This document shows, piece by piece, positions 37,134-60,249 of a stretch of DNA of 64,000 bases. The position numbers were made by a program, and so were the translations under genes. The stretch comes from Candidatus Nomurabacteria bacterium. Lineage in GTDB: Bacteria; Patescibacteriota; Minisyncoccia; Phycocordibacterales; UBA918. The stretch is taken from NCBI GenBank assembly GCA_023898585.1, contig CP060229.1, forward strand, positions 854,587 through 918,586. The letters run 5' to 3'. Each line of letters starts with the position of its first letter. Position 1 is the first letter of the stretch. Under the pieces are notes generated by a model, which made no database searches, was not told the origin of the DNA, and saw nothing but the letters and a program-made list of their open reading frames with translations.

Positions 37134-37883
37134 CTAGACAGTGCGCACGGCTGCATAAACAGCGTCGGGCGCAAGCTCATGTTTCAGGGGAACTATCGCA
37201 GCTGCCCATCGCCCGTTGTTACAAAACAACAGACTGCCGTGTAAATCGTCGTCTACACTTGCGTATGTCGTACCGAGAAACAGAATCTGCTTGCCTCCCC
37301 ATTCCTTTGGAATTATCCCCGGGTCAGAAAGCAGATACTCCAGTGCGGTCGCATTCAGAGGTTGCTTGTTCACGAGCATTTTCATGTAGTCGTAGCCACG
37401 CGGCCACTTGTTACAGGAAGGTGGTTTGGGTGAGAACAACTGAATGCTAGTCTGATCCCACGTAAAGAGTCCGTCGTTATGCATCACCACTTGCATGTTC
37501 GGTGGAGGAGAGGGTGACTTCGTGCAATCGAAGATGTAGTTGATTCCTCCATATCCATCAAACTCCCACTCTGCACGACGTGATGCTCGCACATACACCG
37601 TGCCAGCGGCAAGATAGTGCCAATCCTCGTGACGGAAGACGTCATCACGAAGTGAGACAAGCAATTTTCGTTTTGCAGGAATAACCTGGTGCTTCAAACA
37701 CCATTCGAGCGACTCTTCAGTCATGTACATGTAGGCATCGCAGTAACCTGGCTCTCTGAACACATTTGCTGTTTCGTCATACACGGTGTTCCTTGGTGAC
37801 ATTGGTGACCATTCAGGCACCAATGTTATATCGATTTTGACGAAGAACAGAACGGCTATTGCTACTAAAATGAGTTTCTTCAC
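37134..37883 (-). CDS. Secreted hypothetical protein encoded in a GC-elevated segment
   Basis: 249 aa; signal peptide MKKLILVAIAVLFFV; mature domain Trp/Tyr/Cys-rich; local GC ~50% over 36.95-37.9 kb against a ~40% background. Confidence 0.45.
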   Translation of the reverse strand: MKKLILVAIAVLFFVKIDITLVPEWSPMSPRNTVYDETANVFREPGYCDAYMYMTEESLEWCLKHQVIPAKRKLLVSLRDDVFRHEDWHYLAAGTVYVRASRRAEWEFDGYGGINYIFDCTKSPSPPPNMQVVMHNDGLFTWDQTSIQLFSPKPPSCNKWPRGYDYMKMLVNKQPLNATALEYLLSDPGIIPKEWGGKQILFLGTTYASVDDDLHGSLLFCNNGRWAAAIVPLKHELAPDAVYAAVRTV

Positions 37884-38163
37884 TTAATACACCCCTCAAA
37901 AGTTATTAACGATTTGTTAGTGAATCAATCAACTGATTGAGACTTTGATCAAGTTCTCGTGTCGCTTTCTCTGCACGTACCAGAGCAGGATCTTCTCTTT
38001 TGAGTAAAAAACTGTTTGTCTAGGAACCTCTTACGGTAGTCGTGTAGTTTCTTGGTGTCTTCGTTGTTACCAAGACAAAGTTGTGAGACGGTCATGTCAG
38101 TAGCCTCCGTAGTTTTGGTGTGTTGTCAGACTGCAATTTCTGGAGACATCCTAGCATTTCGAT

Positions 38164-44687: not shown

Positions 44688-45392
44688 TTACTTAATTGTT
44701 GCCGATTCTATCACCACATCTTCCAAAGGCAAGTTATTAGCGTTGGTTTCGACTTGTCCGATGGTATCAACCACGTCCATGCCGGAAATTACTCTACCAA
44801 ATACAGGATGTTTGGATGACAACGGTTGTTTATCAAAGTCCAGATTAGTATTATCCACCAAGTTAATGAAGAATTGACTTCCACCAGAATTTGGTCCGCT
44901 GTTAGCCATAGAAATGGTACCGCGTTCATTCGTCAGCAATTTCCCTTTCACATGTTCATCTTGAATCACGTAACCTGGTCCACCCGTTCCGTAAGTTAGC
45001 ACGTTGTCTGTCTTGGTATTTGGGTCACCGCCTTGTATCATGAACCCGTCAATCACACGATGGAATTTAATACCATCGTAATAACCTTCCTTAACAAGTT
45101 TTACAAAGTTGCCAGCCGTAATCGGCATATCATCTTGGTACAACTCTATTTCGATAACTCCTAAATTTGTATTTAAAACAGCGATTGGATTCATATCATT
45201 ATTTACATCTACATTATAAGCCTCAAGGGCGGTAGCTTTTAAAGGTGCCGGTAGCGTTTCCGAACTAGTAAGTTCTAACTCTGGACTGTTACCAAACCCA
45301 CCATTGATCAAGAACATGACTCCGACAACCAATGCTGCACAAACCAGCAAAAGTATCACTATCGGCTTTGATTGTTGTAGTAAGTTATTCAT
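44688..45392 (-). CDS. Peptidyl-prolyl cis-trans isomerase, cyclophilin-type, membrane-anchored
   Basis: 234 aa; N-terminal TM; cyclophilin motifs YDGIKFHRVIDGFMIQGGDP and GTISMANSGPNSGGSQFFI. Confidence 0.8.
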   Translation of the reverse strand: MNNLLQQSKPIVILLLVCAALVVGVMFLINGGFGNSPELELTSSETLPAPLKATALEAYNVDVNNDMNPIAVLNTNLGVIEIELYQDDMPITAGNFVKLVKEGYYDGIKFHRVIDGFMIQGGDPNTKTDNVLTYGTGGPGYVIQDEHVKGKLLTNERGTISMANSGPNSGGSQFFINLVDNTNLDFDKQPLSSKHPVFGRVISGMDVVDTIGQVETNANNLPLEDVVIESATIK

Positions 45393-45404: not shown

Positions 45405-45845
45405 TTACTTTTTTATCACTTCAATCTTAAATTTACCTCTTTTTTCACCCAAAACCAATTCGACTTCATGCTCGCCAATTTCCTTAATCGGCGCTTCAAA
45501 TGAAATCATGTTTGAATCGATTTTTACTCCGATAGCCTTTCCTGCCAGTGCGACATCTTGAGCATTAACAGCCTTAAAAGTGTGACCTTTTTCGTTCACG
45601 TCAGCTTCAATTTTTAACTTTGTTTCAGTCAGCGCTTTTAATGCTAATGTAAAGTGAGACTCATCAGCCAACTTGCTTAACTCTACCTCCGCGTGCAGTT
45701 TATCGATCCGCTTTTTGTTGTTTGCGGTTGCTGGCTCTGCCATTTTCATCGGGATCAGCTTGTTTAATGCGTAACCGTCCGGAACCACTACCAAATCTGA
45801 TTTCCTGCCAATTTTAGCTACGTCTTGTAAAAGGATAACTTTCAT
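45405..45845 (-). CDS. rplI: 50S ribosomal protein L9
   Basis: 146 aa; MKVILLQDVAKIGRKSDLVVVPDGYALNKLIP is an L9 N-domain; two-domain layout. Confidence 0.85.
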   Translation of the reverse strand: MKVILLQDVAKIGRKSDLVVVPDGYALNKLIPMKMAEPATANNKKRIDKLHAEVELSKLADESHFTLALKALTETKLKIEADVNEKGHTFKAVNAQDVALAGKAIGVKIDSNMISFEAPIKEIGEHEVELVLGEKRGKFKIEVIKK

Positions 45846-45949
45846 ATTCTTTTCATTATATTAAAACTTCAAACAGTGCTTTTTGATCGCTTGCATCATA
45901 TCAGAACAAAGCAATATTCTCCAGTTTTAGTCTTCACTTTTGGAATTGA

Positions 45950-45980
45950 AAAACCGTTGCAATCTTTTGCAACGGTTTTT
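45950..45980. terminator. Rho-independent terminator (bidirectional-capable)
   Basis: aaaaccgttgcaa-tctt-ttgcaacggttttt: 11-bp perfect stem flanked by an A-run and a T-run. Confidence 0.65.
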
Positions 45981-45987: not shown

Positions 45988-46668
45988 TTAACACAGATTA
46001 TTCTTGAACGAGGCGAGGTAATCGATTTTAACTGCCTCGAACTTGTTTTTTCCGTGACTGAATATTTTGTCTGAGATCTTTTCTGTCGCCACAAAAGACT
46101 TTAGCCTGATATGGAGGCAGACGTAGATCATGGCGTACACATATCTGTAGCCTTCACAGAATGTCCACTGTAAGACTCCCAGACTGAGAATCCTTAGGAG
46201 TCTTTCTCGCATTGTCTTAGACTGACCTCTGATGTCAATACAGAAGCGAGAAAGTTCAACACTGCCAGCCGGCACCAAATCTACCGCTTCCTGAACCGGT
46301 AGTTTCTTGCCTTTAGGAAGACGGTCTGAGTGTATGACTCTACAGCCACCCACCACTTTTCCGTTCAACACCAAAACCAGATAAGTAGAATAATTACTAC
46401 TGTCATAGTAGTCAAAATTCACTTTCTCCCAGTCCTGGTGCTTTTCGAGATAGTAATGCTTTCTTATCTCGAAGTACTTCTCTTTGAAATAGTTTGCAAT
46501 TTGTAAATCGTTGAGGATATACACCTCAATCAAATCCTCTTCATTTTTGTATCGCAACGAAATGAAGGGGAATAATTTTTCTTCAAGTTGCGGAACTAGT
46601 TTCAGACCTGGCTGATGCTCTGAACTTCTTACTGGTAACTGATACTGTTGTTGCAGTGCGTTTTGCAT
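45988..46668 (-). CDS. LuxI / N-acyl amino acid synthase (PF00765/PF13444-like) family acyltransferase
   Basis: 226 aa; matches autoinducer-synthase-family landmarks in order: R..YY....DWE, FDYYD, YLVLVLNGKVVGGCRVIHSD, and VELSRFCI (the E-x-SRF motif). No LuxR-type gene nearby. Confidence 0.45.
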   Translation of the reverse strand: MQNALQQQYQLPVRSSEHQPGLKLVPQLEEKLFPFISLRYKNEEDLIEVYILNDLQIANYFKEKYFEIRKHYYLEKHQDWEKVNFDYYDSSNYSTYLVLVLNGKVVGGCRVIHSDRLPKGKKLPVQEAVDLVPAGSVELSRFCIDIRGQSKTMRERLLRILSLGVLQWTFCEGYRYVYAMIYVCLHIRLKSFVATEKISDKIFSHGKNKFEAVKIDYLASFKNNLC

Positions 46669-46797
46669 TTTACACCTCCGGTGTATTCAGTGCCGACAGG
46701 CACTATGCTCATCACCTGTCAGCGACAGTAATTGAATCTTTTCCTTTCAGTGGTTCAAGAAAGGCAATATAAAAGTACCTGCTGGTAAGATAGCACA

Positions 46798-46818
46798 TTA
46801 TTGACAGACTGTCAATAA
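46798..46818. promoter_or_regulatory. Perfect 21-bp palindrome ttattgacag-a-ctgtcaataa (candidate operator)
   Basis: Located ~130 bp upstream of the LuxI-like gene start and 20 bp past the thioredoxin stop. No U-tract, so it is unlikely to be a terminator. Confidence 0.35.
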
Positions 46819-46836
46819 TAAGCTTGAAATTATTTA

Positions 46837-47406
46837 CTATTCATTATTTTGTGGGACAGCTAAAGCTTTATCTAAATATTTATGCATTTCGGCTGGTGTC
46901 AATTCTCCGTGTTGGTGATGTACAATTTCTCCGTTACGGTCATAAAAGAGAGTTTCGGGCATAGTATACCCCCCTATCGATTTGTAGTATTTGTCTGAAG
47001 CGTCTAAAACCAGCAATATTTTCTCTTCCGCATTTATGAATTTAAGAAAACTTTGAGCCGTAGTTCCTGGTTCTGCCCGGTTTATACCGATTACCTTAAC
47101 ACCCTCGTTTTTATATTTTTCGTACAATTCCGTTAACTCTTTCATCTCACTTACACATGCCGGACACCAGCTAGCCCATGAATTGACAATCAAAACTTCA
47201 CCCACAAAATCAGACAAAATGACTAGATTACCGTTCAAATCTGTGTAAGTAGCAAGCGGGTCGTTCTCTAATGATTGCTGAGCTGGACTTACTTCTTCGG
47301 TCGCCTCATTGTTCTTTTTTACAACTGTCCACGTGTAAAAAACAACACTGATCGTTACCAGCGCTATAGTCGTGATCGTTAGAACGTTGTCTTTGCTTAA
47401 CTGCAC
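46837..47406 (-). CDS. TlpA/ResA-like thiol-disulfide oxidoreductase (membrane-anchored thioredoxin fold)
   Basis: 189 aa; N-terminal TM; WCPAC active site (VNSWASWCPACVSEMKEL). Confidence 0.7.
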   Translation of the reverse strand: MQLSKDNVLTITTIALVTISVVFYTWTVVKKNNEATEEVSPAQQSLENDPLATYTDLNGNLVILSDFVGEVLIVNSWASWCPACVSEMKELTELYEKYKNEGVKVIGINRAEPGTTAQSFLKFINAEEKILLVLDASDKYYKSIGGYTMPETLFYDRNGEIVHHQHGELTPAEMHKYLDKALAVPQNNE

Positions 47407-47415
47407 AAAAAAATT

Positions 47416-47922
47416 TTAACCTTTTATGAACAACTCAAATTCGTCCGGTGATTCACCTTCGCTGGCAGGAATTAAATTCAGTTCAATATTTCTTCCCATG
47501 AAAAGGGCAGAAAATGTAGCACTGTCTGATGCGCTTGCTTCCACTTTAAAGCGTTGCGCTGTTACAACCTGTACGCAAGTGTCCGAGTTGTTGATTACGT
47601 CGAAATTGATAACCACTCTCTCCGGGTAGGATTCTTGAATCGTTGCTTTTGCTTCTAAGAGGTCACAAGGAGTTGGAAAATTTATCTCACCAACCAAAGT
47701 ATGGACACCATCAATAAAGTAGTGCTTGGCATCAACGCGAGTAATATCAGGGTATTTGTTTGAATCTTCGATTTTTTCAATCGGGGTCACATCGACTGGT
47801 GCTTCTTGCTGTATTTCTCCCTTTTTCAAGTGTGCATATATAAACATCCCAACTACCAAAAGAGCAAATAGTGTAACCACTAAAATAATTGATTTTTGAC
47901 TCATAAGTATTGTATTAGCCAT
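47416..47922 (-). CDS. Hypothetical membrane-anchored protein
   Basis: 168 aa; N-terminal TM (IILVVTLFALLVVGMFIYAHL) and a beta-rich ectodomain. Confidence 0.4.
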   Translation of the reverse strand: MANTILMSQKSIILVVTLFALLVVGMFIYAHLKKGEIQQEAPVDVTPIEKIEDSNKYPDITRVDAKHYFIDGVHTLVGEINFPTPCDLLEAKATIQESYPERVVINFDVINNSDTCVQVVTAQRFKVEASASDSATFSALFMGRNIELNLIPASEGESPDEFELFIKG

Positions 47923-47939
47923 TAAACCTCTCCTTACAG

Positions 47940-49607
47940 TTATTGTACAATATTTACGATATCTTTGCCTACATAAATTGATATTTGAGCTTTGGATTCG
48001 GACAGTCCGCTATACGATGACAACAAGGCGCCTTCCAAGATATTACTTAGAGTCAGAGCTTGATCTTCGAGGCCTGGTTCGAAAACGATTATGGTATTGT
48101 TCTCCTTAGTTTCCAAATCGTTAGACATTGACACTATTTCATAACCCATATTTTCAAGATAGATACGTAGTGAGGCGGCAAGGCCATTGATGCCACTGCG
48201 GTTTACGATTTTTATTTGCGGAAGTTCAGGATTTGTAGCTACTTTTTCTTTTTCGCCCTGTACGAGTTTTTGGTAAGCTGTATCTTCCGAAGTTATCTTT
48301 ACCCCCTCACCTACCCCTTCAAAAGTGACTTCATATGGTCGCTCCGGTGTGGATGCAGATTTTACGTACCAAACAACAGCAGAGATAAATAAAATTGCCC
48401 CAAGCAAAGCTAGGAAGAAAAATTTGTAATTTGAGACGAAGCCGGCCACAGTTTTTAAACGATCTGTGTTTGTGGTTGTGTGTTGTAGTCGACCCCTCAA
48501 ATCTAACATGCCGGCTTCAATCGGGGCCACCACCGACAGTCTGGCCTTTTGATTATTCGAAATCATTTTACCGCTAAACTGCTGACTGGAATTAAGACCA
48601 GCCAGGTTTAGCATTTTTCTTATGTAGAGTTTAACAGCCCAGGTAAATAAATAAGCAAAGCCGAGCAGAACCAATATTACCGCGCCCATTATTTTCCAAG
48701 GTATTACCCAAAATGCAGTTTCACTGTTAACAAACTGTCTTTCCTTATCTCCGTAACCGATGGTGGCTATGGCTGTATATCTACCAATGTCTGCCATAGA
48801 CCACTTTCCAGTCCAAGTGAAAGTAAACATCCTAATGCTTTCCGGAAGCACGTTACCAAACATGGTTGAGCGGTTGATAGGGATAACTCCGCGCTCTTGA
48901 CCCCACATGTTAAGTATTTTTATATCCCCTTGTGGCTGAATATGGACATTGCCTTTGTTTTCAAAACGCAGTTCAAAAGTTGCTTCCGGTTTTTCTAAGA
49001 TGGCTGATGTGGTGCGAAATGATCTTATATTGCCAGATTCGACTACGTCGCCGGTAACACGCAAAAAGACCAGAGAGGTTACAATCTGTGACGTTTTTAC
49101 CTCAGGAACTCCGGTTTCATTTGCTGGAGGTTTTGTTCCAATCAATACAGCCGCGAAGTGACCTCCAGGCGAGGCGTCCTCAGGGACTTTGATAGTAAAA
49201 TCAAGTTTATGAGTCTGTTCAGGCGGAATAATAATTTCACTTTCCGGAATACTTATCCATTCAGCGATTGTTTGACCTTTGCTTTCTTCTTCTATTATAG
49301 GGACGAATTTACCCTGCCCATCTTCACCTTGTGGAGCAAAGTTGACAGCATTGGCAAAAATAGTAATTGGGTATGAGTTTGAGTTCACTACACGAATTGA
49401 GCTACTCCATTCCTGTCCCGGGTTGGCTGACATTTCGAATAAGGTCGGAGAAACTGTGAGCGATAAAGCACTTTGAGCAAACGTTATGGCCGGCAAAAGC
49501 GACATTAAGAAAATACCTGAAAACAAATATAGGTGCGCTTTATTGGGTTTTGTTTTTGAGATCGATATCATGTTCCTTGGGATTTTGTGTATGACCTTCA
49601 CGGACAT
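47940..49607 (-). CDS. DUF916-like cell-surface protein with internal TM pair and C-terminal LytR_C-like domain
   Basis: 555 aa; signal peptide; N-domain SLTVSPTLFEMSANPGQEWSSSIRVVNSNSYPITIFANAVNF (DUF916-like pattern SP....E....PGQ....I.V.N.S); two TM helices; C-terminal PQIKIVNRSGINGLAASLRIYLENMGYEIV... resembles LytR_C. Confidence 0.45.
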   Translation of the reverse strand: MSVKVIHKIPRNMISISKTKPNKAHLYLFSGIFLMSLLPAITFAQSALSLTVSPTLFEMSANPGQEWSSSIRVVNSNSYPITIFANAVNFAPQGEDGQGKFVPIIEEESKGQTIAEWISIPESEIIIPPEQTHKLDFTIKVPEDASPGGHFAAVLIGTKPPANETGVPEVKTSQIVTSLVFLRVTGDVVESGNIRSFRTTSAILEKPEATFELRFENKGNVHIQPQGDIKILNMWGQERGVIPINRSTMFGNVLPESIRMFTFTWTGKWSMADIGRYTAIATIGYGDKERQFVNSETAFWVIPWKIMGAVILVLLGFAYLFTWAVKLYIRKMLNLAGLNSSQQFSGKMISNNQKARLSVVAPIEAGMLDLRGRLQHTTTNTDRLKTVAGFVSNYKFFFLALLGAILFISAVVWYVKSASTPERPYEVTFEGVGEGVKITSEDTAYQKLVQGEKEKVATNPELPQIKIVNRSGINGLAASLRIYLENMGYEIVSMSNDLETKENNTIIVFEPGLEDQALTLSNILEGALLSSYSGLSESKAQISIYVGKDIVNIVQ

Positions 49608-50553
49608 ACATTAAGACTTCTTCACCGTCCTCATCATTGTAATTGTCTCGCGAAAATGTTCTTCTAAGCAATAACGTAACCAGTATTACCACGATTAAGA
49701 TACCGCCAAATATCGTTACCAGCAAATGTATCGGCATCATGTAAAAAAAAGTTGTGTCGTGCAACGACGCCCCCATGTTCTTTCCGTATTGTAATGATAC
49801 ATTGGCTTTGAATCGACCCAACTTGTCATCTATCGGCACTTCGCTGGTTAGAGTAACTGTTTCGCCCGGTTCGATCACTTTAGCTTCGCTGTTTACTTGA
49901 ACTGAGCCGATTTCTGAGCCTCTAGAATCATAAAAAATAACTTCACCACTCGGAGCAGACGGTATGTCCCCTAAGTTCTCTACCACTATACTAATTTTCT
50001 TTTTGTCATCGTCTGTGATGAATCTATCCACCAAAAACCCAGCTATCTTCATGCTGTCTGCTCGTTGATCAGCAACTGTTATTTTTACAACAACACCATC
50101 AGCTTCGCCTTTCATAGCAATATCTTCCGCGATGTCTCGATTTTTTGCCGGTACAAAACCGATAAACGCGTGGTACTCCCCAGGTTTAGCGAGTGGGTTG
50201 ATTCTGAAGGTCACCGGTATCTCCTTTTTGTCTCCCGGCAGAATTTCGATTCTGCCTCTTGTTACTTCTATCCAGCTGGTAATTGTATTGGTTCTGTCTG
50301 TCATGACCGGAGTAACAAATTCCTTAATTTCACCTTTTGTGTCCACGGAAATTTCGTTAACCGTGGCGTAGACAACATATTTTGTGAATTTGCTTTCGTT
50401 AGTCAACAAAACCGTCTCTTCGATGATGTCTCGCGGTCCGGCTACTTTATCCATCAAAAAAGGTCGGACTGAGTACTCGGACGCCGAGGAAAATGCCGGC
50501 GGGATAAAAATGGTCAGCAAGAATAAAAGTTTTATAGCAAAATGTCTTTTCAC
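49540..50553 (-). CDS. DUF916-like cell-surface protein with C-terminal TM anchor
   Basis: 337 aa; signal peptide; YSVRPFLMDKVAGPRDIIEETVLLTNESKFTKYVVYATVNEISVDTKGEIKEF (DUF916-like); a C-terminal TM (LLVTIFGGILIVVILVTLLL) and an acidic cytoplasmic tail, the same topology as Gram-positive CscA-type proteins. Confidence 0.45.
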   Translation of the reverse strand: MKRHFAIKLLFLLTIFIPPAFSSASEYSVRPFLMDKVAGPRDIIEETVLLTNESKFTKYVVYATVNEISVDTKGEIKEFVTPVMTDRTNTITSWIEVTRGRIEILPGDKKEIPVTFRINPLAKPGEYHAFIGFVPAKNRDIAEDIAMKGEADGVVVKITVADQRADSMKIAGFLVDRFITDDDKKKISIVVENLGDIPSAPSGEVIFYDSRGSEIGSVQVNSEAKVIEPGETVTLTSEVPIDDKLGRFKANVSLQYGKNMGASLHDTTFFYMMPIHLLVTIFGGILIVVILVTLLLRRTFSRDNYNDEDGEEVLMYVREGHTQNPKEHDIDLKNKTQ

Positions 50554-50569
50554 AGAAGTAATATACCAT

Positions 50570-53500
50570 TTAAAATACCGGTACCGCTACATAGGTTATT
50601 GTTGTAGTGTAGTCACCAGCCGGCTGAAGCTCTCTGGCTTTGATTCTGTATATGATGTTTTCTACGTCGACTGAGGCTATGGAACTGTACATTATTTCAT
50701 CCAATGAAGTACTGAGAGAAGCGTACGAATCAAGTGGAGCAAACCTGGCCGAGCCACCTTCGAGTGTAGCGTCGGTGGTGTGGTAGCCGGAACAACTAAT
50801 CGCACCTCCTGTGCATCCAGTAGACCAACCGACCGGTGATGCGTTTGTGCCGGTTATCGGTATGATTTGGTTTCCATAGGAATCAAGTAGTTGCTGATCC
50901 ACATACTTAAAGACCTGATAACCTTCGATCGCGTTAGTATCGACAGTAATTTGCTGTGCCACTTCAACATCGGTATCAAGAGGCAGTGACCCGAAATCGA
51001 CAGAAGTTGCCGTCGTGGTAGCGTCTGTCGTTATTCCTGCTATCGAAGTGTTGGCGTCGACACCATCGATGGTAAAAGTAAGAGAGGCACTTTCTCCAGC
51101 CAGGCTGGGGTTTGAAGTACTCGCGAAGACCACTTCGTTATTAGCAAGATCATACAGTCTGAAGTGATAAACCCTGCCGTAATTACGTTCCACATTGGTG
51201 TACTTAAGAGCAAACTCGTATTCCGTCTTATCTCCTCCATTATGTGTGAAGCCGTTGTAGTAATAAGAACTTTCATTATGAGTGCCACATCCGGCCCCGA
51301 CACTTGCCACGCAACTATCAGAATCGGAAAGTACCGCCGTTGTAATTACTTCATTGTCAACTCCTCCACCATCTTCATAACACCAAACTGAACTGGCCAC
51401 ACACGAAGATGTGGCGACAACATCTTGAGCATCACTGAAATCAGCCTGTTCAGCAAACTGTATTTTGAATCGAGCATTCACTTGGGTCAAGTTCTTTATC
51501 TCGTCCAAAGTGACTCTCAACTTAACCGAGTCGTCTTTTAAAACATTGGTTGGAGCTATGTTCTCCGGTGCTAGATCAACGGTTGGTGTTTCGTTTGTCT
51601 CATCGCCGTACCAACGCCAGGAAGTGATGACCGGTGTGTAACCTTCTGTCCTTATTTCAGGGTAATAAAGATAACCATCGAGTGGAGTGTCGTCAGACTT
51701 AATCATGCGAAAACAGTAAGTGGTTCTTTGTGCGGCTCCGTTTTGCTCAATTAACCAATCGTATTCAACATCTTCACCATCATAAACCGGATACTGATTG
51801 GCTAACGACGGGTTGTTTTCGGTGTAGCGCCCGGCACGATCTGATATTGAAATTAGCAAATCGCCTCCGGTTGGCGGATTGCCCGAAAGTGAAACACCGT
51901 CTGTGATTCCTGGCGCATCGTATCCTCTCCAAATCGCACCACTTCCAACTGAACCGACATCAGTCCATGAGACAACTGCCGAGCAAGTTGTGCTTCTAAC
52001 AGCGTATTGCAATTTTGTCGTCACCAGACCAGCGGGTAAAGTAGCATTACTTACTTTCAAACTCATTCTTATGCGGATTCTGTCACCATCAGCCAGTGGT
52101 GCATCAAGCGCCCCAATGGAAGTATTCTCTCCAAGATTGTCAATTCCCGGTGGCCATGGATCAGTCGGTTTCAAAGCGTCGTTATCCACATAAAAACGAT
52201 AGTAATTTTGTCGCACTGCGAGGTCTGCGGCTGGCCATTGAACAACCTCGGTTCGGTAAGCTAATACTTGACCGGTGTCACTACGCCACAATTCATAGGT
52301 GCTGGTCGACATTATAGTAGCTCCGGCTATCATTCTTGGATAATTATTTCCCGTTCCGGTAACGGACGTAGTCAAAAATATGGATGCGTTATTGGTTGCA
52401 TTGAGAGGCGTCGGGATGTTAACCGAGATACTAAGTGGCTCTGAACCGCCGGTTGTGTTTCCATTACTTCTTTGTACGAGCATTTCTCCGGTACTGGTCT
52501 GGGTGTTTTCGATAATCCAGGCTACAGAAACGTGATTGGAGGTAAGTAGAGCTTGCGGTTCCAAAAGAAATGACACAGCGCCAATACTCGATAGCCATAC
52601 TTCATGACCGAAGTCGGCCAAGCCAAGACTACTGGCGTATCGTTTTTGCGAATGAATGAAAGTGCGAGCTAGGCTATTAACGGCGGTTATGTTTTCAGTC
52701 TCCGTCACTCCGACCGCTGAATAAGAATGCTCAACTCTCTGCACTTTCCAATTTAGTCCCACGAATTCAACTACAGCGTAACTCACGTAACCATCATTAG
52801 CTCCGGTGTCATTACGAGTAAAGACCGGTTCATTTGTTGAAGATGACCAAGAAGCGGTCGACTGATGCCCGTAGCCTTCAGATCGGTTACCGCCGGTGTG
52901 TTGTTGTCCTGTAATAAAGACAACAATGTCGCTGTCATCAACTACGGTTGAAACTGCGGTACCTGTCCCTATAGTATCCGCCACACCATAATTTATAAGA
53001 CTTTGACTTCTAACGAAAATTTCGTTATCTCCACCCGGTGGACCAATATATTCAACAATCTCCCAAGCTACATAAGTATTATTTATAGAGTCACTGTCTC
53101 TCGCAATCGTGAAACTCGTTTCTATATTCCAAGGGTTAGAAATATAAGCGGCATAGTCGTCGGTGTTTTGGTTCCCTCCATTAGAGTCTTTACCAGCACC
53201 TGTGTAATGTGAATTCGTGATCCTAACAAAGGCACTCGTTGAGGCACTCGGTGCGACATAATCTGTACCGGCTGTTAATGTGACACCAGAGCCACTCACT
53301 ATATTGACTCCCCGCTGAATTTTAAAATCTCTTCTTGCTTCTATCGACACTTCAGCGTACTGGTCGTACTGCAAGAGAGGATCACCATTTTGAGTTGCTC
53401 TAAAACAAAAAGTAGTTTCGTAAGGCGTGTCGTTTGTAGTTGTAATGGCATACTCAAGATCAACGTACTGAGTCTGCGTTAAGGTGGTGGTAGCTGAAAA

Positions 53501-56500
53501 TGATTCAGTATCTCGAACGCCACCGTTTGAACCTAAGAAGGTTTTTCCACCCGGGTTGCTTACTCCACCGTTTGCCACAGCTATGTCAGTCGTGGTTTCA
53601 CCGTTGGTGAGATTGGGAGAATCGTACATATCCCAGGAAATTCCTCCACCGTCTGCATCGCTCCAAACCGCAATCGCTTCGCAAGTGGTAACTTTAATAC
53701 CATATTCGAGGCCGTATTTGTGAGGAATTGAGCTGGTTGAGCCCTCGTTCGAAAGACCCAGCCTCAATCGAATTGAGCTGTTTTTACCAAAATCTAGCAA
53801 AGGGGTGTCTTCCGACCCTCCGGTAGCTGAAGTGGCCCCAGTCTCGTTTCCGTCGTCGTTTCGCCAGTGATAATGTATTTGCGTAACAATTCCACCGGAG
53901 AGCGTGGTTGAGCTAGTTATGTCGAGAGCGGTTGATGGAGCGACTGAACCTCCGTCTGTGACCAAAACATCGGACGATCCTGAATTGATGATAATGTTAA
54001 GAGTTTCACCATTGTTAGCTGTGTTAGTAACATCAAGGACTGGATATACGCACATCGCCTGGGTAGTTGTGATGCCAACCGAGCCGGTAAAAGTGGCAGT
54101 TCCGTCAGGACCACTAAAAGAGGAGAAAGCACTTCCGAATTGCGAGTCAGATATGGAAAAAGTTTCGCTGGCACAATCGTATGGAGAGCTGGTATCAAGA
54201 TCGTAGTAAAGTCTGATATTTTCCACTCCACTTGTGCCGTCAACAGTGCCGTTCTCGGTAATAGTTATACTTGTTACATTTCGTGATGAATTGTTTTCTT
54301 TTATAACAAAAGCTCCACCAACATGAAAATCGGCTGTCGGTATATCGACCGTGGCGTACTGCGTGCTAGTGGCACTTACTCGTACATCAGCAGCGATCGT
54401 AGCCTTGGGGTAATTGGTATATGCTGGCAACTCTTCGCCATTGTTTGTTAGTCGAAAGCAATAGGTATTACCTTCGGTAGCTGAGGTGGAAGCGATTATT
54501 GAAAACTCCACTTCTGTCCAGTTAGTAGGTAAAAATGTCAGTGGACCAAGTGTGGAAGAAGTATCACGTAGTCCACCATTGGGGGTCAACAAAACAGTAT
54601 TCTCATTTGTCACACCACCGATACCAACACTAATGTCCGTCGAGTTCGACCCGTCTGTTAAAAATGTCGAATCATACATGTTCCAATCGTCATCAGTGGC
54701 TCCGACATCTGTCCAGCCGGTCGCAACATCACAAGTTGCGGTGTTAAGCGCGTACTCAAGTCTTAATGTGGTTGGAAAAGATGAAGTTGAACCTTCATTG
54801 GAAATACCGAGTCGCAATCTCCTTGGTGTGTCTTGCTGGAGCGCAGTCAATGAAGTGTCTTCTATCCCACCAGTCCTAGATGTGGCACCGGTTTCGTTAC
54901 CATTATCATTTCGCCAATGGAAGTGAGTTTGAGTAAGATCTGAATCGAGTATATTTGTTGTTCCGGACAAAACCTGCACCGTATCAGGAACGGCAGTCAC
55001 CGACCCTGATACAAGAACATCTGTTGCCGGATTGGAAATTTCAATTTCCATATTACTTCCGTCAACCGCCGATTTGAGAACGTCCAACACAACATAAACG
55101 CACATTGACTGTGTTGGCGAAATACTGACGGAGCCAGTGAAAGCTGAAGTTCCGTCTGCACCAGAAAAACCGTTGGCATCAGTACTACCAAATTGTGACT
55201 CAGAGCCGGAGTATGATTCGCTCGCGCAGTCGTAGGGAGAACTGGTGTCAAGGTCGTACTTCAACTTTATATTATTCAAGCCACTTGAAGCATCTACCGT
55301 ACCGTTTTCTGTAATCTGAATATTGGTGACGTTTCGTGCTTCAGTAAACTCTCGAATTACGAATTGCCCACCCACATACTGATCGGTGGTACTTGCTCTC
55401 ATTGTCGTTGCTTGTGTGCCGGAAGCAGACACAACGGTTTTAGGGGAGAGGTCAGCAACTGTATCGCCGAACACATCATCAACGTTAGCTTCAAACCATG
55501 ACAAAAATAATCTTTGAATTGACGAGTAATTAAATGAAACCCCGTACATATCACCGGAAACAGTATTGACAGGACCTTGTTCAGCGCCCCAACTGGTCAT
55601 GGCGGAGGTCGACGTTGCCCAATACACGTTAGCTGTAGATGCACTGTTAATGGTGGTACGGGCAGAATAAGCAACGTAGACGGTCTCTGTATTTTCATCA
55701 ATTGTAAGGGAAACGGATGTTAAACCACGGGTATCGTTGGTAATGATGTCGGGTAGATTTGACCAAGAACCACCTGAATATTTCGCTACTCTAATATCGT
55801 GGTCAGCGGTAGTGAAGGTGTTAGCATCAGCGATATAAGCAAGGAAAACATCTCCGGAAACTGGGCTCCTTACCGCCGACATTTGGAAATCGTAGGTTGA
55901 GCTTTCAACGGCATTCGCATCAATAGTAAGCCAGTTTGTGTCCCAACTTGTGCCATTCCATACCTTGGAACGCATGTCGTTGGCACTAATATCACGATTG
56001 ATGAGAAGTATGTTTCCACTGTCTAGAGGTAGGAGCATAGTAGCATCTTCATCAGCGTCCATGAATGTGCCATCGCCAACTTCAACCCAGTTCGTTGCTG
56101 TGCCACAGGTAGCAGAACAAGAAACAACAAAGCGATCGCCATTGTCAGACACTGATATATAAAGGATCCCGTTTGTACCTTTTGTTAGAGAATGATTAGC
56201 CGTAGCAGCACTTAGTGACATTGGACTTTGGCTCAGTACAGCACTTACAGGACTTGAGCCGAGCAACAAAGTATCACTAGACACATCAAGACGATTGTAC
56301 CAAATATCATCGTCACCCGAATCCATCGTGGCGATGTGTATGTAGGATCCAGTATCACCCGGTGTCCACTGATCGTACCAAACAACAATTGCTTGACAGT
56401 CGGTCTGTGAATCCACAAGTACCTGTGTCCCCCATGTCGCCCCACCGTCTGTAGTTTTCTTGTAGACACAAGTGCCGTTTGTTCCAGTTCCTCCGACACC

Positions 56501-56707
56501 ATCTCGATAAAATTTATATCCAACTTGATCCGATATAAACACTGAGGACGGTTGAACTTGGTTGTGAGAAGGGCCGTTTGTGCTCGGAGTGTCATCAATA
56601 ACTACTTCTGCTGCTAAAGCATAAGGAAATAGTGGCCAACTCAAAAATTTGTCTGCGCCTGAAAAAACAAAAGTTGAAATAAGTATAAAAGTAATTAACT
56701 TTTGCAT
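50570..56707 (-). CDS. Giant secreted surface protein (~2045 aa): BNR/sialidase-like N-domain, four repeated ~230-aa modules, conserved C-terminal domain
   Basis: Probable start is the Met of MQKLITFILISTFVFSG (signal peptide; GGTGG-like RBS upstream). BNR/Asp-box TTDGGATWGTQ. Repeated modules signalled by FHWRNDNGNETGATS / HYHWRNDDGNETGATS / YYRFYVDNDALKPTD / SWRWYGDETNETPTV, each followed by RLRLG(I/L)SNEG... and ...(T/Y)(Y/F)CFR... Duplicated beta-sandwich segments (YDLDTSSPYDCASE...). C-terminus ...YRIKARELQPAGDYTTTITYVAVPVF. Confidence 0.6.
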   Translation of the reverse strand: MQKLITFILISTFVFSGADKFLSWPLFPYALAAEVVIDDTPSTNGPSHNQVQPSSVFISDQVGYKFYRDGVGGTGTNGTCVYKKTTDGGATWGTQVLVDSQTDCQAIVVWYDQWTPGDTGSYIHIATMDSGDDDIWYNRLDVSSDTLLLGSSPVSAVLSQSPMSLSAATANHSLTKGTNGILYISVSDNGDRFVVSCSATCGTATNWVEVGDGTFMDADEDATMLLPLDSGNILLINRDISANDMRSKVWNGTSWDTNWLTIDANAVESSTYDFQMSAVRSPVSGDVFLAYIADANTFTTADHDIRVAKYSGGSWSNLPDIITNDTRGLTSVSLTIDENTETVYVAYSARTTINSASTANVYWATSTSAMTSWGAEQGPVNTVSGDMYGVSFNYSSIQRLFLSWFEANVDDVFGDTVADLSPKTVVSASGTQATTMRASTTDQYVGGQFVIREFTEARNVTNIQITENGTVDASSGLNNIKLKYDLDTSSPYDCASESYSGSESQFGSTDANGFSGADGTSAFTGSVSISPTQSMCVYVVLDVLKSAVDGSNMEIEISNPATDVLVSGSVTAVPDTVQVLSGTTNILDSDLTQTHFHWRNDNGNETGATSRTGGIEDTSLTALQQDTPRRLRLGISNEGSTSSFPTTLRLEYALNTATCDVATGWTDVGATDDDWNMYDSTFLTDGSNSTDISVGIGGVTNENTVLLTPNGGLRDTSSTLGPLTFLPTNWTEVEFSIIASTSATEGNTYCFRLTNNGEELPAYTNYPKATIAADVRVSATSTQYATVDIPTADFHVGGAFVIKENNSSRNVTSITITENGTVDGTSGVENIRLYYDLDTSSPYDCASETFSISDSQFGSAFSSFSGPDGTATFTGSVGITTTQAMCVYPVLDVTNTANNGETLNIIINSGSSDVLVTDGGSVAPSTALDITSSTTLSGGIVTQIHYHWRNDDGNETGATSATGGSEDTPLLDFGKNSSIRLRLGLSNEGSTSSIPHKYGLEYGIKVTTCEAIAVWSDADGGGISWDMYDSPNLTNGETTTDIAVANGGVSNPGGKTFLGSNGGVRDTESFSATTTLTQTQYVDLEYAITTTNDTPYETTFCFRATQNGDPLLQYDQYAEVSIEARRDFKIQRGVNIVSGSGVTLTAGTDYVAPSASTSAFVRITNSHYTGAGKDSNGGNQNTDDYAAYISNPWNIETSFTIARDSDSINNTYVAWEIVEYIGPPGGDNEIFVRSQSLINYGVADTIGTGTAVSTVVDDSDIVVFITGQQHTGGNRSEGYGHQSTASWSSSTNEPVFTRNDTGANDGYVSYAVVEFVGLNWKVQRVEHSYSAVGVTETENITAVNSLARTFIHSQKRYASSLGLADFGHEVWLSSIGAVSFLLEPQALLTSNHVSVAWIIENTQTSTGEMLVQRSNGNTTGGSEPLSISVNIPTPLNATNNASIFLTTSVTGTGNNYPRMIAGATIMSTSTYELWRSDTGQVLAYRTEVVQWPAADLAVRQNYYRFYVDNDALKPTDPWPPGIDNLGENTSIGALDAPLADGDRIRIRMSLKVSNATLPAGLVTTKLQYAVRSTTCSAVVSWTDVGSVGSGAIWRGYDAPGITDGVSLSGNPPTGGDLLISISDRAGRYTENNPSLANQYPVYDGEDVEYDWLIEQNGAAQRTTYCFRMIKSDDTPLDGYLYYPEIRTEGYTPVITSWRWYGDETNETPTVDLAPENIAPTNVLKDDSVKLRVTLDEIKNLTQVNARFKIQFAEQADFSDAQDVVATSSCVASSVWCYEDGGGVDNEVITTAVLSDSDSCVASVGAGCGTHNESSYYYNGFTHNGGDKTEYEFALKYTNVERNYGRVYHFRLYDLANNEVVFASTSNPSLAGESASLTFTIDGVDANTSIAGITTDATTTATSVDFGSLPLDTDVEVAQQITVDTNAIEGYQVFKYVDQQLLDSYGNQIIPITGTNASPVGWSTGCTGGAISCSGYHTTDATLEGGSARFAPLDSYASLSTSLDEIMYSSIASVDVENIIYRIKARELQPAGDYTTTITYVAVPVF

Positions 56708-56837
56708 ACGCAAAAAACCACCTTTTTTGTGTGCCCAAAAAAACATGATATGTGGTTATATTTTACTCTATAAACTACAAAAATGTGGTTCTGGTAGTGG
56801 AAAATGTTACTTCATGACACCAATCGTTATTCCTTTA

Positions 56838-58685
56838 CTAGTCGCCCTGGTTGATTGCTGTACTAGAAGAACCAGATTCGTTTGTTGGCTGAATAATCAA
56901 GTCGTAATCAGTCAGTTCCAAGAACTGTTGATCTTCAGTGGTTTTCAGCGATGTACTAGATAATTGCATATCATCCGGTTCATCGGCGGTAGAACTGCCG
57001 TTAGCTGAAGCCTGCTTGAGATTTAGAGTTTCAGCTTCATCAATCTCTCCGACACCCGAGGTACTAGAGCCAGTAACATTCTTTGTTCCATCGATATTGA
57101 ACTCACCTTTACTTGAAGATTTGTTTTGAATAAGAGCTCTTGTCTCACCTGTCCCATCAGCATCTGGAATCTCAACCGGATTATCAGCCGGTCGAGAAGC
57201 GATGGGCGCGGAGATTCCCGTGTTAGGATCAAATCCTTGCGTTACAACGTCACCATTGTCGTACATAGTGTCGTATACAAGCACAAAGCGTGGATTTGCT
57301 ATAACACCCCCTTCGTAGCCATTAATAGTTAAAGTCTCACCACTCTTGAGTGAATAAACCTTGGCTTCTTGCTCTTCCAAGCCTAGCACGCTCCAGAGAA
57401 CATAGCCGTCATCAATCGCCGGAGCAACATCTTGAGTCAGATTATCTGTCAATTGGTCAGTGTATGTGCCATCAAACATCATTATCTCCCAATCATTACC
57501 GTCCCAAGCTTGCCACACCACACCTTCTTTTGAGACTTTTGGCTCCATGTTGTTGGTGCGTGAAAATGTCAGCTGGTCTTCTTTTTCTTCTTTTATGTCG
57601 TATAAGATAATTTGGTACCTGCCATCTATCTGTCTTTGCCACACTACTTGCATTGATTCGGCGTTGTAGTGAGGAGAAGTATCTTCGTACTCATTGTCAG
57701 TTAATTGTTTTACTTCACCCATCGACGTACGCAAGAAAATTTCCATATTTGAATTGGCGCCCAAATCAGCGTACACCACAGCGTTCAAATCTATTCCGGT
57801 TTCCGTATTAACACTACAGTGGTAAGTTCCATCACCAATGGCAACACATGACTGACGGTTGAATTGATAATAATTATCTTCAGTAACTAGACTCTGCGCC
57901 TCAACCTGATTAATTTGTTGAGGAGCAAGATCGTCGATAATTCCAGTCAGGTCAGTATCTTGTGTTTCTGTACTATCGGCACCTGTCGAAGAAGCAGAGA
58001 AAGAAACATGGTCATCCAGTGATGAATCAGCACCAACGGTTGTTGTCATCAGGTCTGAAGAACTCGCCGATGAACTATCATTATCACTATACGAATTTGA
58101 GCTAGTACTCGATGATTCTGTTTCACCCGTATCACTATTACTCTCCGAACCAGTTTGAGTAGTTGTTGACACGCTGGTTTGAAGGAGCAACGATTTGTTA
58201 CTACTACTAGCTACTTTACTTGAAGTGGCAAAAGTTTGTTTAGTAGAAGAAGCAGTTATATTGCTAGATTGAATATCAGCTTGGACATTCGTGTTTACAA
58301 CATTGTTATTAATGGAAGTTGACGAATTTTTAGTGTTTTTTAAGAGCGAGTCTTCGATTGTTGTTGCTGGCTCATTATCGATATCGTCATCTAACGTGGA
58401 TGCTTCAATTGATTCATCTGAATCTCTTATTGAATCATTTATGGTAACAGTTTCTGCAGATTTTGATGAGGCTTGTAAAGCAACCGATTCAGCAACTGGT
58501 GAATTTTTTTCAACATCAACAGTAATAGCATCTTCACTCGCAAAGGCTTTATGAATTGGTTGAATCAAAAACGAAATAAAGAGAGTTAAAACCAAAACAA
58601 CCGAAAAGCCACTGTTAAAGGTAACAGCATAAATAAATGCGGCGGACCGCTTATTATTCTGATATAGCTTTGGTTTGTACCTCAT
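56838..58685 (-). CDS. Membrane-anchored Ser/Thr-rich protein with TolB-like beta-propeller domain
   Basis: 615 aa; N-terminal TM; ~200-aa low-complexity Ser/Thr/Asp tract; C-terminal repeated W/D-rich blades (QVVWQRQIDGRYQIILYD...VVWQAWDGNDWEIMMFDG...YVLWSV). Confidence 0.5.
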   Translation of the reverse strand: MRYKPKLYQNNKRSAAFIYAVTFNSGFSVVLVLTLFISFLIQPIHKAFASEDAITVDVEKNSPVAESVALQASSKSAETVTINDSIRDSDESIEASTLDDDIDNEPATTIEDSLLKNTKNSSTSINNNVVNTNVQADIQSSNITASSTKQTFATSSKVASSSNKSLLLQTSVSTTTQTGSESNSDTGETESSSTSSNSYSDNDSSSASSSDLMTTTVGADSSLDDHVSFSASSTGADSTETQDTDLTGIIDDLAPQQINQVEAQSLVTEDNYYQFNRQSCVAIGDGTYHCSVNTETGIDLNAVVYADLGANSNMEIFLRTSMGEVKQLTDNEYEDTSPHYNAESMQVVWQRQIDGRYQIILYDIKEEKEDQLTFSRTNNMEPKVSKEGVVWQAWDGNDWEIMMFDGTYTDQLTDNLTQDVAPAIDDGYVLWSVLGLEEQEAKVYSLKSGETLTINGYEGGVIANPRFVLVYDTMYDNGDVVTQGFDPNTGISAPIASRPADNPVEIPDADGTGETRALIQNKSSSKGEFNIDGTKNVTGSSTSGVGEIDEAETLNLKQASANGSSTADEPDDMQLSSTSLKTTEDQQFLELTDYDLIIQPTNESGSSSTAINQGD

Positions 58686-58801
58686 TTGGGCTACATAATT
58701 TTGATTTTGCGTGGGAAGTTAGAATATCCCCACATCATAATAATACCAACAGTGCTGTGCCACTGTTAGTATTATTATCAACAGATATTTTGTCTTTTAA
58801 A

Positions 58802-59548
58802 TCATTTGAAGAATAGGTCTGCCAAAATAATTGAAAAGTCTTTAAACGTCATTTTTCCGTCTCCATTAAAGTCGTAAATTTTATCCTTTGTTCCCCATGC
58901 TGACATAAACGCACTAACATCTTTCAGTGTAACTTCGCCATCGCCGTCAACGTCTGTTAAAATACTAACTTTGACATCTAAACCGATACTGGTTGGGTCT
59001 GTATTCTGGTCATATATGTATAAATTTACATTTGAACTCAAAGCTTCAGCAACTTTTACCTTGGTGCCGGCCCCATCACCAGCCAACAAAACCACATCGG
59101 ATGTTTTTACACTACTTTGCCCAGTTTGTTTAGCCTGAAGTTTTATTGTGGCGATCTTATGTTCACCTTTAAAACCTTTCTTGTATGTCCCACCTTGCAA
59201 TATTACGTGATCCGGCATTATTACTGGCTCTTTTGTCCAAATTGTTAAAACAGACTGTCCCTTATCAACCCCCAGGACTTTCACAGCAGACTCATTGAAG
59301 CGTAGTGTAATATCTATGGCATTAACCGGAACATGTGCGTACGCAAAAACATCTAAAGAAAAATTTTCACCTGCTTTGATAGCTGTCTTGGATGCTTCCA
59401 GTCTCACATATGAAACATCAGTCGAAGTAACTACCGCCGCGCCAAGCAAAGCAATTAATGTTAGTGAAGCGGAGAACATGTAGCGGACAGTTCCCTTTCG
59501 TTTTAGAGGGTTAAAGAATACTTTAACGAAACGAAGGAAAAAATCCAT
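58802..59548 (-). CDS. Cohesin-dockerin protein
   Basis: 248 aa; signal anchor; cohesin-like domain (ENFSLDVFAYAHVPVNAIDITLRFNESAVKVLGV); C-terminal type-I dockerin duplicate Ca-binding segments DVDGDGEVTLKDVSAFMSAWG and DFNGDGKMTFKDFSIILADLF. Confidence 0.65.
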   Translation of the reverse strand: MDFFLRFVKVFFNPLKRKGTVRYMFSASLTLIALLGAAVVTSTDVSYVRLEASKTAIKAGENFSLDVFAYAHVPVNAIDITLRFNESAVKVLGVDKGQSVLTIWTKEPVIMPDHVILQGGTYKKGFKGEHKIATIKLQAKQTGQSSVKTSDVVLLAGDGAGTKVKVAEALSSNVNLYIYDQNTDPTSIGLDVKVSILTDVDGDGEVTLKDVSAFMSAWGTKDKIYDFNGDGKMTFKDFSIILADLFFK

Positions 59549-59556
59549 AATTAGGG

Positions 59557-60243: not shown

Positions 60244-60249
60244 AAAAGT

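Follow-up and report, generated by a model that had tools for sequence, protein, structure and literature searches.

A 64,000-nucleotide (nt) stretch of contig CP060229.1 (GenBank assembly GCA_023898585.1), analysed here as a whole and called the window, carries at positions 45988 to 46668 on the - strand a gene for a 226-amino-acid (aa) acyltransferase of the superfamily that holds both the LuxI-type N-acyl homoserine lactone (AHL) synthases and the N-acyl amino acid synthases (NAS). On sequence and predicted structure, we find it quite plausible that this luxI-like gene encodes a functional, highly divergent LuxI-branch GNAT member of a small Parcubacteria clade within the candidate phyla radiation (CPR), with the predicted chemistry of a LuxI-type AHL synthase. 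An earlier note on this DNA had read the open reading frame (ORF) as an autoinducer-synthase-like gene of a CPR-like genome. The ORF is exactly as described there, with an ATG start, and the CPR origin is borne out by an identical protein in NCBI (MCA9355857.1 / USN92142.1, 'hypothetical protein [Candidatus Kaiserbacteria bacterium]'). According to the protein records, the genome of about 0.99 Mb belongs to Candidatus Kaiserbacteria, and the same protein occurs unchanged on 13 contigs from at least eight samples, always in an identical context.

Family placement, fold and key residues

The window protein matches the Pfam family PF00765 (Autoind_synth) with 28.6 bits (E 1.2e-6), narrowly above the gathering threshold of 24. 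In this match, residues 82-213 align with positions 34-171 of the 183-position model, so that it takes in the C-terminal acyl-chain half. Its scores for PF13444 (Acetyltransf_5; 20.3 against 22.4) and for the FeeM family PF21926 (17 against 27) are below the cut-offs, as is its score for the NCBIfam model TIGR03694 of exosortase-associated acyltransferases (14.8 bits against 111.95). The earlier note had proposed the comparison of PF00765 with PF13444, and the outcome favours the former.

Relatives of the protein are rare. A word-indexed search of 5.8 billion clusters with the window protein retrieves only itself, and the same kind of search with the family alignment retrieves four proteins; an exhaustive phmmer search of 1.84 billion representatives yields 14 relatives at 25-40% identity, and a scan of metagenomes with a sub-clade alignment yields three loci. 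The named members are from Kaiserbacteria, Nomurabacteria and Parcubacteria, every one of them Parcubacteria, and IMG labels two of the 14 relatives N-acyl-L-homoserine lactone synthetase. The CPR clade as used here (alignment A1) consists of the window protein and the 14 relatives, 15 sequences of 173-257 aa aligned across the whole domain. R69, E81, D86, G108, P124, E138, S140 and R141 are invariant in all 15 sequences, and W80, D89, R110, L123 and F210 are nearly invariant; the window protein has the invariant columns, the length and the Parcubacteria origin that define the clade. When the clade profile is run against solved structures, it finds every one of the seven distinct AHL synthases among them, with E-values between 5.5e-12 and 5.5e-6, including MesI (5.5e-12), BjaI (2.6e-11), RpaI (5.7e-11), EsaI (4e-9), LasI (4e-7) and TofI (5.5e-6). 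The first non-LuxI sequence match is the GNAT protein SACOL1063 (E 0.0095), and FeeM does not appear in this search of the PDB at E <= 1.

The predicted structure is consistent with this placement. The AlphaFold2 model built with the 15-sequence alignment has a predicted local distance difference test (pLDDT) score of 85.4, mostly above 90 outside residues 1-29, and a predicted template-modelling score of 0.80, compared with a pLDDT of only 37.8 for the single-sequence AlphaFold model. Residues 1-29 are predicted to be disordered and residues from about 31 to 226 form a GNAT-like catalytic domain. This domain has the fold of an AHL synthase, a GNAT-like alpha/beta/alpha arrangement that includes the acyl-chain half. 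The top Foldseek matches in the PDB are MesI, LasI, BjaI and TofI (E 2e-8 to 3e-7), with RpaI and EsaI close behind, so that the AHL synthases together span E 2e-8 to 7e-7. The assignment to the autoinducer-synthase superfamily made in the earlier note is upheld by the PF00765 match above gathering, by the reach of the clade profile to all solved AHL synthases and by these top fold matches. In the structural comparison with EsaI, LasI and FeeM that it had suggested, the AHL synthases rank first, with FeeM (E 1.9e-6) close behind.

The key residues of the window protein are R69, Y73, W80, E81, D86, D89, R110, L123-P124, E138, S140 and R141. Mapped onto EsaI, R24 corresponds to R69, F28 to Y73, W34 to W80, D45 to D86, D48 to D89, R68 to R110, E97 to E138, S99 to S140 and R100 to R141, and these nine LuxI hallmark positions are all kept (F28 as Tyr) and are nearly invariant in the clade. 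The motifs that had been quoted for the protein are present as DWE (D79-W80-E81), FDYYD (85-89), GKVVGGCRV (103-111) and VELSRFCI (137-144); only the spacing of the first arginine motif differs, which is R-x2-YY (IRKHYY, with R69 and Y72-Y73) and not R-x3-YY.

The C-termini of the relatives show a separate feature. Nine of the 14 relative clusters (P0003-P0007, including the P0005 cluster, P0010-P0012 and P0015) end in alanine, with the last residues QLAA, SFAA, RRVA, QATA, MLAA, RQVA, QRCA, AQEA and WQMA, far above the expectation from composition. These ends are reminiscent of ssrA-like or non-polar C-terminal degrons; the window protein instead ends in NNLC.

Amine substrate, acyl donor and competing explanations

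The search with the family profile retrieved a single protein outside the clade, P0025, which scores 67 bits with PF13444 and 28.9 bits with the FeeM family and carries a nearly identical motif string (IRYKVY..GFED..DEWDD..AMRLV..VELSRLCV). Its 91 relatives are 'PEP-CTERM/exosortase system-associated acyltransferases', which IMG names N-acyl amino acid synthases, and we refer to them as the NAS-like family. Among 21 of these relatives, the arginine, the aromatic residue, both aspartates, the second arginine, the proline and the E-x-S-R strand are invariant, and the position of EsaI W34 is Phe. Because eight of the nine 'LuxI' hallmarks are equally invariant in these putative exosortase-associated NAS, the hallmarks do not prove the use of S-adenosylmethionine (SAM), and the landmark motifs listed in the earlier note are not diagnostic of an AHL synthase. 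Judged from these alignments, the nine residues are superfamily features, necessary but not sufficient for an AHL synthase. Trp at the W34 position, found in 13 of the 15 clade members, is the sole marker that the alignments establish as separating LuxI from the NAS-like family. Since the classical LuxI motifs are common to putative NAS, motif- or Pfam-based metagenome counts of 'AHL synthases', those from CPR included, may be over-interpreted.

We compared the clade with both families by profile-profile alignment and by local hidden Markov models (HMMs), using four LuxI sequences rebuilt from PDB alignments as the LuxI set. With hhalign, the clade matches the LuxI set at 99.4% (E 3.5e-21, score 134) and the NAS-like set at 99.1% (E 1.2e-18, score 127), a small margin at the level of the clade. 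With the local HMMs, the window protein scores 38.8 bits on the LuxI model and 17.6 bits on the NAS-like model, 21 bits apart, and 12 of the 15 clade members, the window protein included, prefer the LuxI model. The clade scores 38-47 bits to LuxI and a mean of 44 to the NAS-like set, and the LuxI and NAS-like families score 14-30 bits to each other in one direction and a mean of 26 in the other; by these scores, the CPR clade is closer to LuxI and to the NAS-like family than those two are to each other. The clade also has the E-x-S-R strand, where FeeM has E94-V-V-Q97 (PMC9654057), and is without the insertion of about 30-40 residues that the exosortase-associated family carries after E-x-S-R. 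Trp at W34, E-x-S-R and the lack of the long insertion lean to LuxI, none of them is decisive on the amine substrate, and sequence alone cannot decide between an AHL and an N-acyl amino acid as the product.

For LuxI-type chemistry, we infer that an acyl group from an acyl-CoA or acyl-acyl carrier protein (ACP) thioester, probably built from scavenged fatty acids, would be moved onto the amino group of SAM. The E138-x-S140-R141 strand together with R69, Y73 and W80 would form the pocket for the amine substrate, and lactonisation would free the acyl-homoserine lactone and methylthioadenosine (MTA). The gene is transcribed by itself, between a promoter whose -35 region is palindromic and a terminator that belongs to the gene. 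Because no cognate LuxR is encoded in the 64 kb, the product would act on other cells (the host or LuxR-bearing neighbours) or through a receptor encoded elsewhere.

The acyl donor of the window protein would be either acyl-CoA or acyl-ACP. CoA-dependent LuxI enzymes are reported to be marked by a Trp-Trp 'indole platform' (W142/143 in BjaI and W146/147 in RpaI; PMC8188788), and ACP-dependent enzymes by basic residues on the helix that corresponds to LasI 146-173 (PMC4234381). At the platform position the window protein reads C184-L185, and none of the 15 clade members has WW there; R188 and K190 lie on the docking-equivalent helix, and a basic residue occurs at the helix end in 12 of the 15 members. 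The best matches of the clade profile are the CoA-dependent enzymes. The earlier note had regarded a lack of acyl-ACP-binding features as grounds for leaving the LuxI family; this is no valid refutation, because the CoA-dependent LuxI enzymes are also without them (PMC4234381). Ala179 aligns with EsaI T140 and LasI T142, the 3-oxo determinant, and if the product is an AHL, it predicts an acyl chain without a 3-oxo group.

Besides the shared hallmarks, several observations weigh against LuxI-type AHL synthesis. The PF00765 score of the window protein is marginal, the clade is almost equidistant from LuxI and the NAS-like family in the profile-profile comparison, and P0009 (26 bits, above the cut-off), P0005 and P0014 score better with PF13444. 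Across the clade, four of the 15 members match PF00765 at E <= 0.01 and five match PF13444. The Foldseek E-values of FeeM and of the plain GNAT SACOL1063 (4.7e-7) are near those of the AHL synthases. The NCBIfam models of TraI-type AHL synthases score far below their cut-offs (18.9 against 292 and 17.8 against 250), which excludes TraI orthology but not family membership, these being narrow equivalog or subfamily models. Pfam comparison of roughly 60 ORFs with a length of 90 aa or more, which cover the 64 kb of the window, showed no LuxR, ACP, acyl-CoA ligase, MetK or MTA nucleosidase, and the literature searched contains no experimentally characterised CPR LuxI homologue. The donor is uncertain because CPR bacteria, to our knowledge, are generally without fatty-acid synthesis. 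Homologues of fatty-acid-CoA ligases are widespread in CPR, Kaiserbacteria included, as listed in Table 1 and the supplement of Bernard et al. (2020; PMC7567580).

It is possible, although on the doubtful side, that the enzyme is instead an NAS, which would acylate a free amino acid with a fatty acyl group taken from acyl-ACP or acyl-CoA, in the manner of FeeM, PF13444 proteins and the exosortase-associated enzymes, and whose N-acyl amino acid or aminolipid product would serve as a signal, a surfactant or a membrane lipid made from scavenged fatty acids. The residues held in common with the P0025 family (R, aromatic, D, D, R and E-x-S-R), the strong hhalign match to that family, the PF13444 matches within the clade, the near fold match to FeeM and the orphan position of the gene without a LuxR all agree with an NAS. 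However, the window protein is under the cut-offs for PF13444, FeeM and TIGR03694, its LuxI score exceeds its NAS-like score by 21 bits, and FeeM is absent by sequence at E <= 1 where the LuxI structures are all present. FeeM has E-V-V-Q where the clade has the LuxI-type E-x-S-R (PMC9654057 Table 1), the clade keeps Trp at W34 without the 30-40-residue insertion, and no ACP, acyl-AMP ligase or exosortase genes were found within 10 kb on either side of the gene or among the window ORFs. The earlier note had considered an N-acyl amino acid the more likely product, but the Pfam scores (28.6 against 20.3 and 17) and the local HMMs (38.8 against 17.6) lean to LuxI.

The fold by itself would also suit an ordinary GNAT acetyl- or acyltransferase that uses acetyl-CoA on a small molecule or protein and has no signalling role, since SACOL1063, ElaA and YjcF are among the Foldseek matches (E 5e-7 to 2e-5) and SACOL1063 is the first non-LuxI sequence match. 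We consider this improbable, because the profile matches to the AHL synthases are at least 1000-fold stronger, the PF00765 match spans the C-terminal acyl-chain half and no general acetyltransferase Pfam family is matched. In addition, the window protein reads CIDIRGQSKTMRER after the E-L-S-R strand, without the Q/R-x-x-G-x-G/A motif of an acetyl-CoA loop. Less probable still is that the gene is a luxI-like one, gained by horizontal transfer, that is decaying or has lost its function. The patchy distribution, the position at a synteny breakpoint, four related genomes that have the upstream block but no luxI-like gene there, the slightly high GC content at third codon positions (GC3) and the 30-residue disordered N-terminal extension would fit a remnant, but the ORF is intact with a strong Shine-Dalgarno sequence, promoter and terminator, the catalytic and structural invariants are all kept, the fold is confidently predicted, the identical protein recurs in the 13 contigs, and the promoter element is kept with relatives at 30-39% protein identity. 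LuxI-type AHL synthesis is the reading that we carry forward.

Transcription unit and palindromic promoter element

The luxI-like gene is a monocistronic transcription unit of its own, with promoter, leader, Shine-Dalgarno sequence, coding sequence and terminator hairpin. Its features, and a second copy of its promoter palindrome, are as follows.

45988..46668, - strand: coding sequence of the 226-aa LuxI/NAS-superfamily acyltransferase with ATG start (ORF list, Pfam, AlphaFold2, Foldseek and hallmark columns)
46675..46679, - strand: Shine-Dalgarno sequence GGAGG, 6 nt 5' of the ATG, read on the coding strand
46669..46780, - strand: 5' leader of about 112 nt, its extent inferred from the promoter position
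46787..46815, - strand: sigma-70-type promoter with -35 TTGACA (46815-46810), a 17-nt spacer and a TG-extended -10 TATCTT (46792-46787); promoter scan, 10/12 matches with TG
46797..46819, unstranded: palindrome without mismatch (11+1+11), ATTATTGACAG-a-CTGTCAATAAT, which takes in the -35 hexamer together with an inverted copy of it; candidate operator or shared promoter element
45949..45980, unstranded: intrinsic-terminator-like hairpin with a 14-bp perfect stem, a 4-nt loop and A5/T5 flanks, 8 nt past the stop codon
38164..38176, unstranded: second palindrome copy in the window, TTGACA-c-TGTCAA on the + strand and, on the - strand, a TAGGAT that follows the -35 by 17 nt (motif scan)

The terminator-like hairpin separates the luxI-like gene from rplI, and rplI is provided with another promoter-like site at 45923-45895. 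The leader can form several mutually exclusive short hairpins (CTGTC/GACAG, GCTGACAGG/CCTGTCGGC and GTGCC/GGCAC), and in the fold of the leader RNA a small ACACC/GGTGT hairpin could partly mask the GGAGG Shine-Dalgarno sequence. The fold z-score is -2.39, and 5 of 200 shuffles fold equally well, a modest excess over the shuffles; the flanks and leader of the gene have no Rfam match at E <= 1. We describe these hairpins as anatomy, as they are weak evidence for a regulator.

The -35 region of the promoter is part of the palindrome, and this arrangement recurs at other luxI-like genes. A count of the pattern TTGACA-N(0-5)-TGTCAA over 241 kb of non-redundant CPR sequence gives only four independent sites, against an expectation of about 0.09, and three of the four sit 130-165 nt 5' of luxI-like genes, in the window, in L009/L013 (upstream of the P0005-cluster gene) and in L018, where the copy lies 133 nt upstream of P0002, the closest relative of the window protein (39% identity). 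At each of the four sites a -10-like hexamer follows the -35 at a distance of 17 nt, and the promoter geometry of the window gene is repeated 5' of the relatives in L018 and L009. Because this promoter feature is kept between genes whose proteins are 30-39% identical, the comparison suggests that the palindrome is under selection, whether it serves as an operator or marks a promoter class of its own, and it is probably a regulatory element of one of these predicted kinds. The half-site spacing ranges from 1 to 3 nt among the loci, which argues against a rigid dimeric operator. We rejected the palindrome as a lux box, as it is centred near -30 and not -42.5 and its half-site spacing is variable; it also has no sequence similarity to lux boxes of the CTG-N10-CAG form.

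The second window copy lies upstream of a 48-aa ORF (37949-38095, - strand), which is followed by a gene for a 249-aa protein (37134-37883, - strand) with an N-terminal signal peptide or transmembrane segment and no Pfam family. These genes may be co-regulated with the luxI-like gene.

A different leader is found in relatives. Between a TTGACT-17-TATAAT promoter and the Shine-Dalgarno sequence, kinase-linked luxI-like genes have a conserved leader of about 55 nt (...GCGGGGTCTCCCGTT..CTGTTCATTGGGAGACT....TCTCTCAAT...), located at L014 7130-7210 and 7920-8000, L019 1225-1300 and L017 6925-7000 and 5' of the luxI-like genes in L100, L101 and L102; it is weaker in L009 (9920-9996) and absent from the window leader. 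It could form the alternative hairpins GTCTCCC/GGGAGAC or GGGAGA/TCTCTC and matches no Rfam family. We do not call it a structured RNA: in RNAalifold with eight sequences, 0/15 pairs show compensatory change and the covariation term is +1.0.

Genomic setting, relatives' loci and known systems

The luxI-like gene lies among housekeeping genes, as the earlier note had seen. A gene for a redoxin/thioredoxin-like protein (46837-47406) is on one side, and ribosomal protein L9 (rplI, 45405-45845), cyclophilin (44688-45392) and, in addition to those named in the note, L27 (44318-44599) are on the other. The absence of a nearby LuxR-type receptor claimed there is confirmed and extends to the whole window: none of its roughly 60 ORFs encodes a LuxR-type protein (PF03472 Autoind_bind or PF00196 GerE), a response regulator or a histidine kinase, and tblastn with the response regulator, histidine kinase, AckA, XFP and SET proteins of the relatives finds no counterpart in the window. 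The neighbourhoods of 12 relatives also hold no LuxR-type receptor.

The relatives fall into two kinds of loci. The sub-clade L009 (Nomurabacteria), L013, L014, L100 and L101 has, in this order, the luxI-like gene and genes for a single-domain receiver, a PAS-HisKA-HATPase kinase with two transmembrane segments, acetate kinase and phosphoketolase, and a SET gene is next in L009, L013 and L014, where the sequence reaches that far. Synteny among these kinase-linked loci exceeds 15 kb, so common descent may account for part of the linkage. In L011, L015, L016, L018 and L019, and in L017 up to the contig end, the luxI-like gene is among housekeeping genes without a kinase. Tandem pairs of luxI-like genes occur in L014 (7211-7789 and 8001-8564), L100 (10-132 and 344-898) and L102 (1114-1689 and 1904-2140); the copies are about 53-60% identical, each has its own conserved leader, and they stand directly 5' of the response-regulator/PAS-kinase pair.

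The gene is patchily distributed, lies at a synteny breakpoint and has moved between sites. In L020-L023 the block p337-p555-p168-redoxin that precedes the gene is still present, but synteny with the window ends right after the redoxin gene and no luxI-like gene follows there; L017 is syntenic with window positions 25400-32300 (membrane-fusion protein, Flavodoxin_2, Peptidase_S49, YchF and DUF3467) and has a DUF5671 gene and a luxI-like gene where the window has leucyl-tRNA synthetase. The base composition of the window gene is unremarkable, with a GC content of 0.414 against 0.43 and a GC3 of 0.485 against 0.406 +/- 0.038, about two standard deviations high yet inside the range, and we do not claim recent horizontal transfer from composition.

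Among known systems, the LuxI synthases (the CoA-dependent MesI 6WNS, BjaI 5W8A and RpaI 6WN0 and the ACP-dependent LasI 1RO5, EsaI 1KZF and TofI 3P2F) share with the window protein the fold, a similar length of the catalytic domain and the nine hallmarks. In structural alignments the window protein is no more than 15-19% identical to them, and it differs by an N-terminal extension of 30 disordered residues, an extra beta-hairpin, the lack of an adjacent LuxR and a CPR rather than proteobacterial host; the Trp-Trp platform of the CoA type is missing throughout the clade, and the basic residues of the ACP-docking helix are only partly conserved. The exosortase-associated (TIGR03694-type) family shares R/aromatic/D/D/R/P/E-x-S-R, with a profile similarity nearly as strong as that of LuxI, but it has Phe at W34, the 30-40-residue insertion and a length of 240-260 aa and occurs in proteobacterial-type exosortase genomes. 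FeeM (2G0B), which was obtained from environmental DNA of soil and makes N-acyl tyrosine in an acyl-ACP-dependent reaction, is similar in fold (Foldseek E 1.9e-6, TM-score 0.55-0.69) and in its LuxR-less context, and differs by the missing sequence match, by the strand that is E-x-S-R in the window protein and by the lack of a FeeL-like ACP near the window gene.

Membrane histidine kinases can sense AHLs in place of LuxR, as in LuxM/LuxN of Vibrio harveyi, where LuxM is not of the LuxI family. The synthase, response regulator and two-transmembrane PAS kinase of the relatives would resemble LuxM/LuxN if the kinase senses the product; unlike in that system, the response regulator in CPR consists of a lone receiver domain, and the window has no such arrangement. 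Computationally identified CPR LuxI-like genes and their pairing with kinases are already known from the in silico study of Bernard et al. (2020, mSystems; PMC7567580), which reports nine LuxI homologues by BLAST in five phyla and 36 by HMM, with conserved key residues and with 18 homologues adjoining a putative sensory kinase. The LuxI lineages in its table passages are Taga-, Vogel-, Portnoy-, Giovannoni-, Kerfeld- and Nomurabacteria and WWE3, and none of these passages pairs LuxI with Kaiserbacteria. The kinase-linked relatives L009, L013, L014, L100 and L101 fit its description, in contrast to the window gene, which is without a nearby kinase; the overlap with NAS-like families, the palindromic promoter and the tandem duplications are not described in that study. 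New here are a receptor-less member from Kaiserbacteria, the position of the clade between LuxI and the NAS-like family, the small number of its members, the luxI-like genes duplicated in tandem and the conserved palindromic promoter.

A wider proposal, which we regard as unlikely, is that the clade would be a distinct third lineage of the superfamily bridging LuxI and NAS, which would turn fatty acyl thioesters of the host into acyl-HSL or an N-acyl signal of a new kind, under a conserved palindromic promoter-operator, with a PAS-kinase/receiver readout in some lineages and aimed at the host or neighbours where it is receptor-less. If so, an ultra-small episymbiont would make a signal without sensing it itself. 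In the literature searched, no CPR/Patescibacteria organism has been experimentally shown to make a quorum-sensing signal. A small, self-contained and clonable gene from host-dependent bacteria that are without most lipid metabolism would offer a handle on their communication with, or manipulation of, partner cells in communities such as activated sludge or groundwater.

Other genes of the window are of note in their own right. The upstream block (46837-56746, - strand) encodes a 2058-aa repeat-rich protein without a Pfam match, a 337-aa protein, a 555-aa WxL-interacting/LytR_C protein, a 168-aa protein and the redoxin; its last four genes are syntenic in the four Paceibacterota/Kaiserbacteria genomes L020-L023, and it probably encodes a cell-surface complex. 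Farther upstream, 56838-63695 is a run of large proteins without Pfam families, which may be surface or adhesion proteins, including a 248-aa protein (58802-59548, - strand) with a C-terminal dockerin/EF-hand-like calcium-binding repeat. An RND-type efflux pair (30771-35584, + strand) consists of a 515-aa HlyD-family membrane-fusion protein and a 1087-aa AcrB/AcrD/AcrF transporter (574 bits), and a similar membrane-fusion gene is present in the syntenic L017; the pair could export lipophilic products such as long-chain AHLs, a conjectural link. The 341-aa protein at 21234-22259 (- strand) has an N-terminal Sigma-70 region 4 domain (13-67), a HARE-HTH domain (227-278) and a stretch resembling DUF3320, a combination that is odd for a transcription factor, and is among the few DNA-binding candidates in the window. 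The 929-aa leucyl-tRNA synthetase (22550-25339, - strand) has an unusual architecture, with a NUDIX domain (PF00293, E 3.7e-15, 378-478) directly after the editing domain (227-373).

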